IMG/VR virus record: IMGVR_UViG_2923350032_000003
Length of the DNA stretch: 55,842 nt
Origin: a virus
Taxonomy: Duplodnaviria > Heunggongvirae > Uroviricota > Caudoviricetes
Direction: 5' to 3' (one strand)
Below are positions 16,476 through 54,311 of the stretch, in pieces. The first letter of the stretch is position 1; each line of letters begins with the position of its first letter. Both the position numbers and the translations under genes were made by a program. The notes under the pieces were generated by a model. The model saw only the letters and a list, made by a program, of their open reading frames with translations, was not told where the DNA came from and did not search any database.

Positions 16476-16802
16476 ATGACTAAAAATACTCGTTTTTCCC
16501 CCGAAGTCCGTCAGCGGGCGATTCGTATGGTTCTGGAAAGTCAGGATGAATATGACTCACAGTGGGCGGCAATTTGTTCCATTGCCCCAAAGATTGGCTG
16601 TACGCCGGAGACTCTGCGTGTCTGGGTTCGCCAGCATGAGCGGGATACCGGGAGTGGTGATGGTGGACTCACCACCGCTGAACGTCAGCGTCTGAAAGAG
16701 CTGGAACATGAAAATCGTGAACTGCGCCGCAGTAACGATATCCTTCGCCAGGCTTCCGCTTATTTTGCGAAGGCGGAGTTCGACCGCCTCTGGAAAAAAT
16801 AA
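16476..16802 (+). CDS. IS629 transposase OrfA
   Basis: 108 aa, [23 protein letters not shown]..., HTH plus leucine zipper. Confidence 0.85.
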
Positions 16803-17689
16803 TGCCACTGCTGGATAAGCTGCGTGAGCAGTACGGGGTCGGACCGGTATGCAGCGAACTGCATATTGCCCCGTCAACGTATTACCATTGTCAGCAACAG
16901 CGACATCATCCGGATAAACGCAGTGCCCGTGCGCAGCACGATGACTGGCTGAAGAAAGAGATACAGCGCGTATACGATGAAAATCACCAGGTATACGGTG
17001 TGCGTAAAGTCTGGCGTCAGTTGTTACGGGAAGGTATCAGAGTGGCCAGATGTACAGTGGCGCGCCTCATGGCAGTTATGGGACTTGCCGGTGTTCTCCG
17101 GGGTAAAAAGGTCCGCACTACCGTCAGCCGGAAAGCCGTTGCCGCATGCGACCGCGTAAACCGTCAGTTCGTGGCAGAACGTCCAGACCAGTTGTGGGTG
17201 GCTGATTTTACCTGGGTAAGCACATGGCAGGGCTTCGTTTATGTGGCGTTCATCATTGATGTGTTCGCCGGATACATCGTGGGATGGCAGGTCTCATCAT
17301 CCATGGAAACAACATTCGTGCTGGATGCACTGGAGCAGGCGTTGTGGGCCCGTCGGCCGTCCGGCACAATCCATCACAGTGATAAAGGTTCTCAGTATGT
17401 ATCGCTGGCCTACACGCAGCGGCTTAAGGAAGCCGGATTACTGGCATCAACAGGGAGTACTGGCGACTCGTATGACAACGCGATGGCTGAGAGCATCAAT
17501 GGTCTTTACAAAGCGGAGGTAATACACCGTAAGAGCTGGAAAAACCGGACAGAAGTGGAACTGGCCACACTAACGTGGGTGGACTGGTATAACAATCGAC
17601 GATTGCTGGAAAGGCTGGGCCATATTCCTCCGGCAGAAGCAGAAAAAGCTTATTATGCTTCCATCGGAAATAATGATCTGGCAGCCTGA
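16802..17689 (+). CDS. IS629 transposase OrfB (DDE domain)
   Basis: 295 aa with integrase-core motifs. Confidence 0.85.
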   Translation: MPLLDKLREQYGVGPVCSELHIAPSTYYHCQQQRHHPDKRSARAQHDDWLKKEIQRVYDENHQVYGVRKVWRQLLREGIRVARCTVARLMAVMGLAGVLRGKKVRTTVSRKAVAACDRVNRQFVAERPDQLWVADFTWVSTWQGFVYVAFIIDVFAGYIVGWQVSSSMETTFVLDALEQALWARRPSGTIHHSDKGSQYVSLAYTQRLKEAGLLASTGSTGDSYDNAMAESINGLYKAEVIHRKSWKNRTEVELATLTWVDWYNNRRLLERLGHIPPAEAEKAYYASIGNNDLAA

Positions 17690-28516: not shown

Positions 28517-29914
<1,398 letters not shown>

Positions 29915-33410: not shown

Positions 33411-33806
33411 CTAACCTCGCATGTCAAAGCCAGATTTCTGAAAATCTCTGTAGACTTCCGGATTGTTGAAGGCCGGAAATTTGGCTTTATGAGCTGCGGA
33501 CTTTATCGCTTCGCAATAGGCTTTATCACCGTTACTGGTAGATATTTTTAACGCCGTGCCATCCTGAGAGAATTCCATATGCAACCTGCATTTTTTCCCT
33601 TTCCAGTTATGCGGCTCATCAAGTTTGGCATTAATTGCAGCTCTGATTCCCCGCGCTTGCGCCCCCCATTCATCCTGATCATCCCAGCGTCCTGAACTGC
33701 AACTACCTGTAGCAGTAGTTTTGTGGCAATCTGAAGGGTGTAAAGGTGTGCATCCCGCAACAAAACCGACCCAAAAAGTCAACATAACGATTTTCTTTAA
33801 TCCCAC
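33411..33806 (-). CDS. Lipoprotein with TolA C-terminal (domain III)-like region
   Basis: 131 aa; signal peptide with lipobox VAGC; C-terminal region shares the K-x-C-x-L...C...P..P..VY..FQ pattern with the paralog below. Confidence 0.55.
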   Translation of the reverse strand: MGLKKIVMLTFWVGFVAGCTPLHPSDCHKTTATGSCSSGRWDDQDEWGAQARGIRAAINAKLDEPHNWKGKKCRLHMEFSQDGTALKISTSNGDKAYCEAIKSAAHKAKFPAFNNPEVYRDFQKSGFDMRG

Positions 33807-33956: not shown

Positions 33957-34385
33957 TCAGGGTTTAAAATCCAGCACCCCATTTTGAAATACTTTATATA
34001 CTTCCGGCGAAGGGGGGGCAGGTATATCAGCATTCTTTATCGCATTCATCGCTTCACGACATAAATCGAGGTCTCCACTTTCTCTTTTAACCTCCAGTAG
34101 AAGGCCATTCGGGGCCATATGCATTCTCAGTGTACACTCTTTTCCTGAATACTTACTCGCATCCCCGAACTGTTTTTCGATGGCGCTCTTGATTTGATGG
34201 GCATACAGACGGATATCCTCACTAACATCAGAAGTACGTTCAGATGAACTCACATACTGTGTCTCTATTGCTTTATCGGAGTAATATGATGTACGGTCAT
34301 GATAATTTGTCGATACAGCATCAGTGCACCCGATAATAATCCCACTAATAATCAACGTAAGAATTGATGCGCTACGAAAACCCAT
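33957..34385 (-). CDS. Lipoprotein with TolA C-terminal (domain III)-like region
   Basis: 142 aa; lipobox IIGC; C-terminal roughly 80 aa close to the recalled E. coli TolA C-terminus (YAGQIKSAIESKFYDASSYAGKTCTLRIKLAPDG...VYEVFKNAPLDFKP). Confidence 0.65.
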   Translation of the reverse strand: MGFRSASILTLIISGIIIGCTDAVSTNYHDRTSYYSDKAIETQYVSSSERTSDVSEDIRLYAHQIKSAIEKQFGDASKYSGKECTLRMHMAPNGLLLEVKRESGDLDLCREAMNAIKNADIPAPPSPEVYKVFQNGVLDFKP

Positions 34386-34414
34386 TTTTCCTCACATATG
34401 TCATATAGTAAAGG

Positions 34415-34444
34415 ATTATATATACCGTTGTTTTGGACGCTCAA
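34415..34444 (-). promoter_or_regulatory. Sigma70-like promoter for the TolA-like lipoprotein genes
   Basis: On - strand TTGAGC, 18-nt spacer, TATAAT, then GAGG ribosome binding site before the ATG at 34385. Confidence 0.4.
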
Positions 34445-34975
34445 ACAGCGAATCAGATCAAATAAAACGCACATTTGTTAACATTTACACAAAGTCTGCG
34501 TGGGATATTCTGAAAGAATATCCATAATGTGGAGAGAATCTATTGAAGTGCATGGTGCCGGGTGCCTCCCGGTGAACAAAATGTTCGTGATACCTGTCGG
34601 CGACAGAAAAGGTTAATGGTATCACCCCACCGCACAGGGGGATTCACCATGCAGGAGTTTTCTTAGCAAACTCACTGCGCGCCCGGCAACTCCCAACCAC
34701 ATAAAATGCGGAGTTTGTGGTATTTATGCATATAACTCGCAGGAATTATCTTAAAAAACTGATGTCGATCCGGATTAAAAAGAAGCAGGTCATCATCAGA
34801 TGACTGGAAAAAAGGAAAACAAAAAATACTCATCATACAGTTTTGATTGCAGGGATGAGCCTGCTATGCACAATATGCAGAATATAAGCAAGATAAAAAT
34901 ATGCAGGCATATTATTTCGGATTTTGTTATTAACACAACCTTTTTAATAATCATTTGGCATACAATAAACCAGCC

Positions 34976-35002
34976 CAAAAAGAACCGCCTAAACAGGCGG
35001 TT
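34976..35002 (-). terminator. Intrinsic terminator-like hairpin in the Q-to-lysis intergenic region
   Basis: AACCGCC-loop-GGCGGTT followed by CTTTTT on the - strand. Confidence 0.45.
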
Positions 35003-35322
35003 GGTCAATACAAAGGATGCTTCGTCTTTATTATAGTAATCTGAGGCGTCGGGTGTCTTGTATCAGACAACATATTGTCCCGCTAAACAGCGAATTACAA
35101 ACCACCCTGCAATGATCTCTCATCTCATTTTATATGAGTTGACGACATCAGGATAACGCATCATCAGCCCCTGCCAAGAAATATCAAAACTCCCGCCAGC
35201 AATGTGTTATCACAATATTGTAAAAAAAACACAGCACCGAAACTATAACTGGTCTCTGTTATAATTTGGAGCAGAAAGACCAGTTGCCCAACTAGCAGCA
35301 TTCTCCCCTGCTTTCCTGACGT

Positions 35323-35349
35323 AAAAAAACCGCATTAAGCGGTTTTTTT
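35323..35349. terminator. Bidirectional intrinsic terminator, candidate tR'-like terminator about 80 nt downstream of Q
   Basis: AAAAAAACCGC-ATTAA-GCGGTTTTTTT; perfect hairpin with A-run and T-run on both sides. Confidence 0.55.
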
Positions 35350-35429
35350 ACGATGTCCATGTCTGCAATCCGCCTCGCGATACAGCTTTGCGAAGCATAG
35401 CAAAATTGAAGCAGTTTATACGTAAGAAA

Positions 35430-53914: not shown

Positions 53915-54109
53915 ATGAGATATGACAATGTTAAACCATGTCCATTTTGTGGTTGTCCATCAGTAACGGTGAAAGCCATTTCAGGATATTACCGAGCGAA
54001 GTGTAACGGATGCGAATCCCGAACCGGTTATGGTGGAAGTGAAAAAGAAGCACTCGAAAGATGGAATAAACGAACCACTGGAAATAATAATGGAGGTGTT
54101 CATGTATAA
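53915..54109 (+). CDS. ralR: Restriction alleviation protein Lar/RalR
   Basis: 64 aa from MRYDNVKPCPFCGCPSV...; Cys4 zinc-ribbon-like. Confidence 0.8.
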   Translation: MRYDNVKPCPFCGCPSVTVKAISGYYRAKCNGCESRTGYGGSEKEALERWNKRTTGNNNGGVHV

Positions 54110-54311
54110 AATTACCGCCACTATTGAAAAGGAAGGTGGCACTCCTACTAACTGGACAAGATATTCAAAATCTAAACTAACGAAATCAGAATGCGAAAAA
54201 ATGCTCTCAGGTAAAAAAGAAGCAGGCGTTTCCAGAGAGCAGAAAGTAAAACTGATAAATTTTAATTGCGAGAAACTTCAGTCCTCGAGAATTGCATTGT
54301 ATTCAAATTAA
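54102..54311 (+). CDS. ydaC: YdaC
   Basis: 69 aa from MYKITATIEKEGG... Confidence 0.7.
   Translation: MYKITATIEKEGGTPTNWTRYSKSKLTKSECEKMLSGKKEAGVSREQKVKLINFNCEKLQSSRIALYSN

Follow-up and report, generated by a model that had tools for sequence, protein, structure and literature searches.

A predicted late-operon leader of three recombined modules beside a Q-like antiterminator gene in an Escherichia coli lambdoid prophage

The window analyzed here is the whole of IMG/VR record IMGVR_UViG_2923350032_000003 (Caudoviricetes; 55,842 nt), and all genes around the stretch of interest lie on its minus strand. The stop codon of a Q-like antiterminator gene (35432-35430) and the next start codon (34385) are separated by a gap of 1,044 nt, and a holin of the P21 S type and a lysozyme follow downstream on the minus strand. 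This gap, in an E. coli lambdoid prophage, is an ordinary non-coding region for control and small RNAs; elements of this kind are known, and it holds nothing conceptually new. Judging from sequence comparisons, it probably serves the late operon of a Rac-like lambdoid prophage as its non-coding leader, composed of three recombined modules, all on the minus strand:

35429-35270, minus strand: module A, Q-linked leader
35269-34715, minus strand: module B, decayed STnc100-like RNA
34714-34386, minus strand: module C, STnc100 small RNA and promoter-like site

The recombination breakpoints lie at about 35270, where BLAST matches to EHEC prophages end, and at about 34714 and 34728. The whole gap was found at an identity of at least 99% in about 445 genomes, and RefSeq places no annotation inside it among the full-length matches listed. 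In the phage genome collection, module C was present (in mEp460) together with the first 60 nt of module A, and module B had no match. All the features described in a first-pass annotation of this DNA were found where it had placed them, and its view that the gap contains no credible ORF and no tRNA-like motif was borne out, as none of the seven largest ORFs (45-78 aa) matches any Pfam or PHROG family significantly and neither ARAGORN nor Rfam finds a tRNA in the window. Related loci carry two to four tRNAs at the same position between Q and the lysis genes. Three terminator-like sites were counted in the gap, against 1.9 ± 1.6 in shuffled sequences, a number at chance level; terminators were judged real because their position is conserved in related loci, not from site counts.

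Module C, next to the lipoprotein gene, contains a small-RNA element and a promoter-like site:

34682-34496, minus strand: STnc100-family small RNA (Rfam RF02076; 86.6 bits, cutoff 47)
34444-34415, minus strand: promoter-like site TTGAGC-18-TATAAT (10 of 12 consensus matches)

The STnc100 match lies above the gathering cutoff and covers the full model (positions 1-206, E = 3e-17), so the earlier suggestion that the gap could encode structured RNAs was upheld by the covariance-model scan, and the element accounts for the inverted repeats previously noticed at 34540-34650, which fall inside it. It folds with a z-score of -4.1. Six homologues show hardly any variation in the core GGUGAAUCCCCCU.UGCGG.GGGG ... 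ACCGGGAGGCACCCGGCACCA; the closing helix GCAUGGUG/CACCAUGC and the CCCCC...GGGG and CCGGG-AGGCA-CCCGG hairpins that it surrounds are all present, and the centroid fold recovers the core helices. Members of the family are expressed in EDL933, one of them with a Northern signal (PMC5331693), PasD is Hfq-dependent (PMC8550237), and a common ancestor has been argued for PasD and STnc100 (bioRxiv 10.64898/2026.05.13.724894). As reported for the family, the element sits between Q and the lysis genes in their orientation. The copy here differs from STnc100/PasD in its 3′ end, where in place of the GC-rich terminator hairpin and its U tail an AU-rich hairpin (GGAUAUUCU/AGAAUAUCC) is followed by CACGCAG and no U run, leaving only a weak match to the 3′ terminator part of the Rfam model, and in its position upstream of TolA-like genes rather than in an esterase or stx context. 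PasA, PasB, PasC and PasD1 were rejected as occupants of the gap, as BLAST against the E2348/69 loci returned an STnc100 copy only; the gap shows no BLAST similarity to PasD1. The TATAAT promoter-like site is found upstream of a TolA-like lipoprotein gene (34385-33957), the first of two, in a module that is 84-87% identical to its counterparts in other prophages and in phage mEp460.

Module B occupies the middle of the gap and contains the following features:

35240-34977, minus strand: decayed STnc100-like RNA ("tRNA-array trailer"; homology and fold)
35002-34977, minus strand: second terminator, stem 35002-34983 (AACCGCCTGTTTAGGCGGTT) followed by CTTTTT, at the 3′ end of the STnc100-like unit
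34976-34715, minus strand: AT-rich spacer, partly conserved with a related locus (L036; alignment)

The RNA consists of a long hairpin (35224-35139), a second domain with a 17-nt deletion, and the terminator, and the window copy is without the CGGGAGGCACCCG hairpin. It is 69-79% identical to a stretch just 3′ of tRNA-Gly in three related loci (L036, L037 and L004). The counterpart in L036 gives a full-length match to STnc100 that stays sub-threshold (27.3 bits against a cutoff of 47, E = 6e-4), and the module B sequence itself has no match to the Rfam STnc100 model at E up to 10, nor to any other Rfam family. On this homology, module B is best described as a decayed relative of STnc100 and not as a member of the family, from which the tRNAs seen in the arrays of related prophages appear to have been lost. 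Its consensus fold contains 73 pairs, 8 of them with compensatory changes. The second terminator, which had been noted at 34976-35002, is real, and it works on the minus strand but not in the opposite direction; its 51-nt stretch folds at -15.6 kcal/mol (z -2.9), and the stem is conserved in the alignment, with an A-U to U-A swap at the loop-closing pair. It is part of the decayed STnc100-like unit and not of the Q cassette.

These two modules raise the question of whether most of the gap, except for the terminator near Q, is inert debris left by prophage decay and recombination, a reading that we consider unlikely. It would fit the mosaic breakpoints at about 35270 and 34714-34728, the hairpin and tRNAs lost from module B, the STnc100 copy that scores 86.6 bits against 105-172 bits in relatives and has no U tail, and a genome in which IS1 interrupts the gap with no other sequence change. 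Against it stand the intact STnc100 core and the near-identity of the gap across the roughly 445 genomes, although the latter may reflect only recent common descent. Taken singly, either the STnc100 copy without its U-tailed terminator or the decayed module B could be inert.

The gene that precedes the gap belongs to an antitermination family:

35972-35430, minus strand: Q-like antiterminator gene, DUF1133/AntQ type, 180 aa (Pfam, PHROG and profile search)

The protein matches Pfam DUF1133 (E = 2.5e-107) and PHROG 753, "anti-termination protein Q-like" (E = 2e-79), has no match to PF03589 (the Q-lambda family), and reaches 26.1 bits against PF06530 (Phage_antitermQ), just above the cutoff of 26. 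A profile of 18 homologues finds the Q21 structures 6p18/6jnx with E = 1.4e-5, while the single sequence gives E = 0.27 only, so we call this homology remote. The "Q" of the first-pass annotation can be kept as a Q-like antitermination protein with the correction that it is of the DUF1133/AntQ type, a remote homologue of the Q21 family whose antitermination activity is predicted. Over residues 1-176 it is 84-89% identical to the products of genes directly upstream of isrK in a Salmonella locus (L015) and an E. coli locus (L011), both with isrK matches of gathering level (67-81 bits). AntQ of Gifsy-1 is encoded at the position upstream of isrK, and its expression interferes with termination (PMC4825925). 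This shared position suggests that the Q-like gene is of the AntQ type, for which the evidence of antitermination is genetic.

The region following this gene carries the features on which our interpretation of module A is built:

35433-35428, minus strand: predicted -35 TTGATT, overlapping the TGA stop (from conserved position)
35413-35405, minus strand: TGn and predicted -10 TTCAAT (35410-35405), in the invariant block CTGCTTCAATT
35399-35394, minus strand: TATGCT, candidate sigma-dependent pause element at the predicted start (about 35398; motif)
35398-35323, minus strand: predicted leader RNA of about 76 nt, with 5′ hairpin (35396-35372), linker and terminator (fold)
35349-35323, minus strand: tR′-like intrinsic terminator, A7-CCGC-TTAAT-GCGG-T7 (fold and conserved position)
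35322-35270, minus strand: post-terminator tail of the Q-linked module, common to EHEC prophages (BLAST, 72-78% identity, ending at 35270)

The stretch of roughly 65 nt that leads from the stop of the Q-like gene to the first hairpin is almost invariant across prophages that differ in the cargo that follows, which may be tRNAs, a methyltransferase or an HTH protein. The module A element was found in 1837 of 5426 complete E. coli genomes, with up to five copies in each, and it adjoins a DUF1133 gene in every match listed. The Salmonella locus L015 has a copy of the same leader beyond an isrK-C4-antirepressor insert that follows the Q-like gene, suggesting that the leader is the ancestral partner of this gene. 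Both leader groups have TTGNNN 17 nt upstream of TT[C/G/A]AAT. The block CTGCTTCAATT is invariant in a five-sequence alignment, with rare single-base variants among IMG/VR copies, and the assignment of TTCAAT as the -10 is tentative because it is without the usual A at position 2. Among 25 DUF1133 loci examined from an independent genome scan, 21 have TANGCT near the stop codon, against a chance expectation that we estimate at about 0.09 per locus. In a rival reading, TATGCT with TGn ahead of it would itself serve as the -10 and transcription would start near 35387, leaving the 5′ arm of the leader hairpin untranscribed. The CTGCTTCAATT block and a downstream TCGCAAAG/TCGCGAGG repeat are candidates only for Q-binding elements; no repeat of the Q21 type, with two 8-bp subsites, is evident in the spacer (35427-35411).

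The first hairpin had been described as perfect, flanked by A7 and T7 runs, and located about 80 nt past the Q stop, and this is exact: it reads A7 (35323-35329), CCGC, ATTAA, GCGG and T7 (35343-35349), 80 nt from the stop codon. It folds at -12 kcal/mol (z -4.3), and none of 200 shuffled sequences folds as well. Relatives have terminators at the same position built from other stems (CCCGCC/GGCGGG, CCACC/GGTGG, GCCCGAGG/CCTTGGGC and GGCCGC/GCGGCC), and these comparisons support reading the hairpin as a terminator that ends a short transcript close to its promoter, next to a Q-type antiterminator gene. The tR′ role proposed for it before fits; its supposed bidirectionality is less general, as the A-run upstream of the hairpin is present in only a few sequence types and missing in most relatives, and in this copy the hairpin could terminate transcription in both directions. 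The predicted leader RNA as a whole folds at -24.8 kcal/mol (z -2.9). Its 5′ hairpin is predicted at the same place in both sequence groups, from different sequences and including G-U pairs, and a few variants break one of its pairs. A covariation test of this hairpin says little, because the two stem types are out of register in the MAFFT alignment on which it was based.

The same hairpin could be a mere terminator of the early operon, with the conserved 65 nt as a promoterless 3′ UTR and the late genes driven from elsewhere. A distance of 80 nt past a stop is normal between a gene and its terminator, the proposed -10 is poor, and a consensus promoter scan made no call at the predicted late promoter. 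We nevertheless consider this distinctly improbable, as a 3′ UTR would hardly stay near-invariant while the C-terminal coding sequence and the cargo change. Moreover, the stop codon and the motif block overlap in the group with a 192-aa protein, where the -35-like TTG is kept as a Leu codon, written TTG in the sequences examined. In two loci (L015 and L019) the block lies 600-870 nt from the Q-like gene and is still upstream of the late cargo, and the TANGCT motif equals the annotated pause element of phage 21.

A late promoter that is followed closely by a terminator is best compared with phage 21, whose late cassette we took from the annotation of GenBank OL657228.1. There, the stop codon is followed by a -35, a 17-nt spacer, a -10, the start site, TAAGCTG, a terminator by +50, tRNAs and the S21 holin; the -35 begins 7 nt past the stop, the -10 (AACACT) is non-consensus, and TAAGCTG is annotated as a sigma-dependent pause element at +2 to +8 (OL657228.1). 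The locus studied here shares with it the position of the predicted -35 at the stop, the spacer length of 17 nt, a predicted -10 that departs from consensus, and a TA(A/T)GCT motif of the pause type where the transcript would start; an intrinsic terminator follows within 50-76 nt, and then come cargo and a P21-type holin and lysozyme. The antiterminator proteins are remote homologues. It differs in having no direct repeat of the ATTGAGCA type, in a pause-like motif about 2 nt nearer the -10, in a longer leader with an extra 5′ hairpin, and in a protein that is DUF1133 and not clearly PF06530. Direct DNA alignment with the phage 21 pR′ detected no homology, and the likeness is one of motif and position only. 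The first-pass annotation had compared the layout with that from pR′ to tR′ in lambda, and while its idea of a short-transcript terminator stands, phage 21 is the closer parallel. In lambda, transcription starts about 79 nt past Q and gives an RNA of about 194 nt. Here, the promoter overlaps the stop and the predicted RNA is about 76 nt, not the approximately 190 nt of lambda.

We propose that module A is the utilization site of the adjacent Q-like antiterminator. Transcription would begin at about 35398 from a sigma-70 promoter overlapping the stop codon (-35 TTGATT, 17 nt, TGn, -10 TTCAAT), and the start would lie on the -10-like TATGCT, where sigma could be recaptured and the polymerase pause, providing the step at which the Q protein is loaded. 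Without the Q-like protein, an RNA of about 76 nt would end at the 35349-35323 hairpin; with it, the polymerase would read through this terminator and the one at 35002-34983 into the TolA-like genes, the holin and the lysozyme. The STnc100 copy is co-oriented with the late operon and, as its U-tailed terminator is lost, its transcript probably continues into the TolA-like mRNA, which would also have its own promoter-like site. The start site, the pausing, the Q-dependent readthrough and any expression are all predictions from sequence.

The short RNA that such a promoter would release has precedents. In StxS (PMC7547250) and lambda 6S RNA, a constitutive late promoter and a nearby tR′ likewise yield a short by-product RNA of Q control, and in StxS this tR′-terminated by-product has become an Hfq-dependent regulator (PMC7547250). 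Those systems have Q proteins of other families and no sequence similarity, and the RNA here is predicted only. By this analogy, the leader of about 76 nt could be an unrecognized and very widespread regulatory small RNA, found in about one-third of complete E. coli genomes and not in Rfam; like StxS, it would be a constitutive product of lysogens, and its conserved 5′ hairpin, which differs between protein subgroups, might even help to load the antiterminator via RNA and not DNA. We regard such a regulatory role as quite unlikely. The antQ-isrK arrangement of Gifsy-1 is similar in having an antiterminator of the same family (84% identity in the Salmonella locus L015) and an RNA of about 75 nt that is made from its own promoter, starts about 33 nt past the stop and ends at a leaky terminator (PMC4825925). 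IsrK differs in belonging to a c4/antirepressor module and in its sequence, while the RNA here is the family's usual leader with no antirepressor downstream. It is very improbable that the short RNA is an IsrK homologue, leading a P1-immI-like c4/antirepressor module and acting both as a small RNA and as an mRNA leader in the control of an antirepressor: a whole-model match to Rfam isrK (RF01394) at 35396-35323 (E = 0.005 on 141 nt) and a like architecture (5′ hairpin, linker, terminator), size and position after an AntQ-type gene speak for it, but its 21.6 bits fall far short of the 50-bit cutoff, downstream there is neither a C4 RNA nor orf45 nor an antirepressor gene, and the true isrK of L015 and L011 differs in sequence and coexists in L015 with a separate copy of the leader. 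We rejected membership of the leader RNA in isrK for its score and context. The leader copy of L015 sits where the Gifsy-1 paper puts isrJ; Rfam has no isrJ match there or in the window.

With this interpretation, a stretch left unannotated by RefSeq in the genomes inspected is now explained, and a testable layout of promoter, pause motif and terminator is available for a Q-like family that is still DUF1133 in Pfam. If confirmed, it would allow late-gene control to be annotated in many prophages of E. coli, Shigella, Salmonella and other enterobacteria, and it would add one more candidate small RNA that arises as a by-product of antitermination. The STnc100 and STnc100-like units also point to the gap between Q and the lysis genes as an exchange site for structured RNAs and accessory cargo.

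Two further features lie around the boundary of modules A and B:

35257-35265, plus strand: TGTTATAAT, extended -10-like site facing the bidirectional hairpin (motif search; a lead only)
35301-35164, minus strand: 45-aa hydrophobic ORF (toxin of a rival reading)

Together they could be taken for a type I toxin-antitoxin-like pair, in which the ORF would encode the toxin and a convergent 78-nt antitoxin RNA (35272-35349, plus strand), with TGTTATAAT as its promoter and the bidirectional hairpin as its terminator, would overlap the start of the ORF. The hydrophobic character of the ORF would suit this reading, as would the position of TGNTATAAT, which occurs once in the 55.8-kb window (2.1 expected anywhere), 58 nt upstream of the first hairpin on the plus strand, the fold of the implied RNA (z -2.8), and weak plus-strand Rfam matches to the antitoxin RNAs OrzO-P and AgrB. 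However, these matches depend mainly on the terminator, relatives lack the plus-strand promoter motif, and several points count against the ORF: the spacing between its Shine-Dalgarno-like GGAG and the ATG is only about 1 nt, homopolymer frameshifts change its C-terminal half in near-identical copies (L059, L069 and L070), the ATG is missing in another copy (L003), and it has no Pfam or PHROG match, so that we give the pair hardly any credence. An EHEC 65-aa protein annotated at the same place is unrelated to the ORF. Under the reading, quite unlikely in our view, of the leader as a regulatory small RNA, a convergent plus-strand transcript begun at TGTTATAAT would use the same bidirectional terminator in this prophage and could base-pair with late transcripts that read through it.

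All genes around the gap lie on the minus strand, in this order:

36858-36259, minus: DUF1367 gene
36259-35969, minus: YbcO gene
35972-35430, minus: "Q" gene (DUF1133, 180 aa), followed by the 1,044-nt gap
34385-33957 and 33806-33411, minus: two lipoprotein genes with a TolA C-terminal domain, after the gap
33216-32944, minus: P21-type holin
32944-32447, minus: lysozyme

The gap is made of known kinds of elements, namely STnc100-family RNAs and a late-control cassette of Q type with promoter, pause element and terminator; we infer each mechanistic step of the cassette. Modestly new is that the DUF1133/AntQ family has a conserved leader, absent from Rfam and unannotated in the RefSeq loci inspected. 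The observations of the first-pass annotation are confirmed. Its perfect hairpin is exact (A7-CCGC-ATTAA-GCGG-T7, 35323-35349, 80 nt past the stop codon) and folds at -12 kcal/mol (z -4.3), its second terminator is a minus-strand hairpin at 35002-34983 followed by CTTTTT, and its inverted repeats are covered by an Rfam STnc100 match. In line with it, ARAGORN detects no tRNA, and none of the ORFs in the gap is backed by a family match. The number of terminator-like sites in the gap is not above chance (3 vs 1.9 +/- 1.6), so the case for function rests on comparison with related loci.

A BLAST search of the gap against 5,426 complete E. coli genomes revealed a mosaic. The whole gap is present at >=99% identity in about 445 of them, and the gene-proximal part (module A, 35429-35270) recurs at 72-94% identity next to other DUF1133 genes with quite different downstream cargo. 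Searched alone, this part occurs in 1,837 of the 5,426 genomes, at most five times in each, and a DUF1133 gene adjoins it in every row among the matches listed. Past the stop codon, about 65 nt are almost invariant, followed by a variable linker and a terminator at a constant place, whose stems vary (CCGC, CCCGCC, CCACC, GCCCGAGG, GGCCGC), suggesting that function is kept rather than sequence. In an independent scan with one genome per species, TANGCT lay no more than a few tens of nucleotides from the stop codon in 21 of the 25 DUF1133 loci examined, preceded by TGCTT(C/G/A)AATT and, 17 nt further up, TTGNNN; in the subgroup with a 192-aa protein, they coincide in part with the last coding nucleotides and the stop codon. 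In one genome, NZ_AP021890.1 (hits H1 and H32), an IS1A is inserted inside the gap between flanks that are otherwise 100% identical, so a lysogen tolerates an interruption of at least some of the gap.

The name "Q" had been given to a protein that RefSeq calls only "DUF1133 family protein", and it appears to be an AntQ-type, Q21-related protein. It belongs to DUF1133 over its full length (E 2.5e-107), passes the PF06530 cutoff of 26 only narrowly (26.1 bits), and is matched by PHROG 753, "anti-termination protein Q-like". The single sequence matched Q21 structures weakly (E 0.27), and a profile from 18 homologues reached E 1.4e-5, covering the N-terminal WxxGxLxxWGxW motif and the C-terminal half. 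Homologues with 84-89% identity over residues 1-176 immediately precede isrK matches of gathering level in one Salmonella and one E. coli locus, which is the place of antQ in Gifsy-1, where antQ expression interferes with termination (PMC4825925). The profile match and this position together point to the AntQ-type assignment.

The cassette that follows the gene contains these elements:

35433-35428, minus: predicted -35, TTGATT, overlapping the TGA stop codon
between TTGATT and TTCAAT, minus: predicted 17-nt spacer
35413-35405, minus: TGn and predicted -10, TTCAAT
35399-35394, minus: candidate pause element, TATGCT
ending at 35323, minus: terminator of the leader

The lambda pR'-to-tR' layout proposed earlier was essentially right as a Q-type late cassette, but phage 21, whose experimentally defined late-control elements are annotated in GenBank OL657228.1, is the better model. 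There, the -35 TTGACA begins 7 nt past the stop codon; the 17-nt spacer contains the Q-binding repeats ATTGAGCA and AATGAGCA; the -10 AACACT precedes the start site; a sigma-dependent pause element, TAAGCTG, occupies +2 to +8; and a terminator by +50 is followed by tRNAs and the S21 holin. The order of elements is alike and the spacing nearly so. No Q21-like direct repeat is visible in the window's cassette, and DNA alignment with phage 21 gave no alignable homology. Given the phage 21-like order and spacing, TATGCT reads as a pause element, with a predicted start at about 35398. In a rival register, TATGCT would itself serve as an extended -10 and transcription would begin near 35387; the predicted -10 TTCAAT has no A at position 2. 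With TATGCT as the pause element, transcription from about 35398 would yield an RNA of 76 nt that carries a 5' hairpin and then the terminator. This predicted leader folds at -24.8 kcal/mol (z -2.9), its 5' hairpin (GCUUCGC/GCGAGGC) lying at 35396-35372. In the second sequence group, a hairpin of different sequence (GCUCGG/CUGAGC) is predicted at the matching position, and the hairpins of both groups contain G-U pairs, which favours structure at the RNA level. In the MAFFT alignment made for a covariation test, the two stem types did not fall into register.

An Rfam isrK match covers exactly 35396-35323, at 21.6 bits, below the cutoff of 50. In Salmonella enterica strain s1 (L015), a true isrK, a C4 antisense RNA and an antirepressor gene lie in this order between an antQ-type gene and a separate leader copy:

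L015 3588-4500: isrK, C4 RNA and antirepressor module

This arrangement suggests that IsrK belongs to an inserted P1-immI-like module, the module A leader (35429-35270) being the usual partner of the DUF1133 gene. We therefore rejected the window leader as an isrK, since the score is sub-threshold, a true isrK coexists with a separate leader copy, and the likeness is one of architecture. The L015 leader copy lies at the place that the Gifsy-1 paper gives to isrJ, and its terminator looks disrupted; no Rfam isrJ match was found at this copy.

Module B (35269-34715) was absent from the sequenced phage genomes searched and is 69-79% identical to a stretch 3' of tRNA-Gly in other prophages. In several lambdoid prophages with tRNA arrays, this stretch is predicted to fold as a conserved RNA of about 270 nt, made up of a long hairpin, then a second domain with CGGGAGGCACCCG, then a terminator:

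L036 2652-2928, L004 1666-1938 and L085 2666-2939: structured RNA after tRNA arrays

Of the 73 pairs in its consensus fold, 8 show compensatory changes. It has no Rfam family, its only STnc100 match being sub-threshold (full-length in L036, 27.3 bits, E 6e-4), and it may deserve a family of its own. In the window, the long hairpin (35224-35139) and the terminator remain, a 17-nt deletion takes out the conserved hairpin of the second domain, and Rfam does not detect module B. Given the homology and the deletion, the second terminator marks the 3' boundary of a decayed STnc100-like unit that has lost its tRNA neighbours.

Module C (34714-34386) contains the STnc100 match (34682-34496, 86.6 bits), whose fold has z -4.1 and whose 3' hairpin is AU-rich and without a U tail. 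Across six homologues, the core is almost invariant and the middle varies. The module of STnc100 and a TolA-like gene also follows other Q types (E. coli 55989, phage mEp460), and tandem arrays of up to five STnc100 copies occur in other loci. E. coli 2013C-4282 (L008; 2944-3923 and 5682-5894) has five copies of 120-172 bits: a SASA-family esterase gene is preceded by a tandem run of four, and the fifth, beside a tolA-like gene, lies another 1.8 kb or so upstream. A base-pairing small RNA is not usually found in such a head-to-tail array, which hints at a dosage or cis-acting role. STnc100 copies are transcribed in EDL933, with a Northern signal for one (PMC5331693); the related PasD RNAs are Hfq-dependent (PMC8550237), and a 2026 preprint argues for a shared ancestor of PasD and STnc100. 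Upstream of the TolA-like gene lies one further element:

34444-34415, minus: promoter-like site, TTGAGC-18-TATAAT

The tandem lipoprotein-like genes between the small-RNA region and the holin have TolA C-terminal domains (Pfam E 2.4e-23 for 33957-34385 and 1.3e-14 for 33411-33806), and in other prophages and phage mEp460 they form a single module with STnc100. They may be accessory cargo ("morons") that acts on colicin or phage entry through Tol.

The first terminator is directly followed by a hydrophobic ORF of 45 aa. The spacing of its ribosome-binding site is poor, near-identical copies carry frameshifts, and one EHEC relative lacks the start codon; a 65-aa protein annotated at this place in EHEC loci is unrelated to it. 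On the plus strand, TGNTATAAT (35257-35265, its sole occurrence in the window) aims at the bidirectional hairpin 58 nt downstream, making a convergent 78-nt RNA a candidate; if made, it would be antisense to the start of the 45-aa ORF. Neither TGNTATAAT nor the A-run behind the hairpin's bidirectionality is conserved in relatives, so we regard this RNA as a lead and not a finding.

Elsewhere in the window, Rfam gave three gathering-level matches:

29576-29698, minus: isrC (150 bits)
1273-1471, minus: IS009 (221 bits)
16757-16873, plus: ALIL frameshift pseudoknot (120 bits)

At 54108-54286, minus, an Rfam match of 225 bits covers the full length of RalA, which is the antitoxin RNA in the RalR/RalA system of the Rac prophage. 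In matching genomes, trkG adjoins the lysis genes; together, these features mark the element as a Rac-like prophage.
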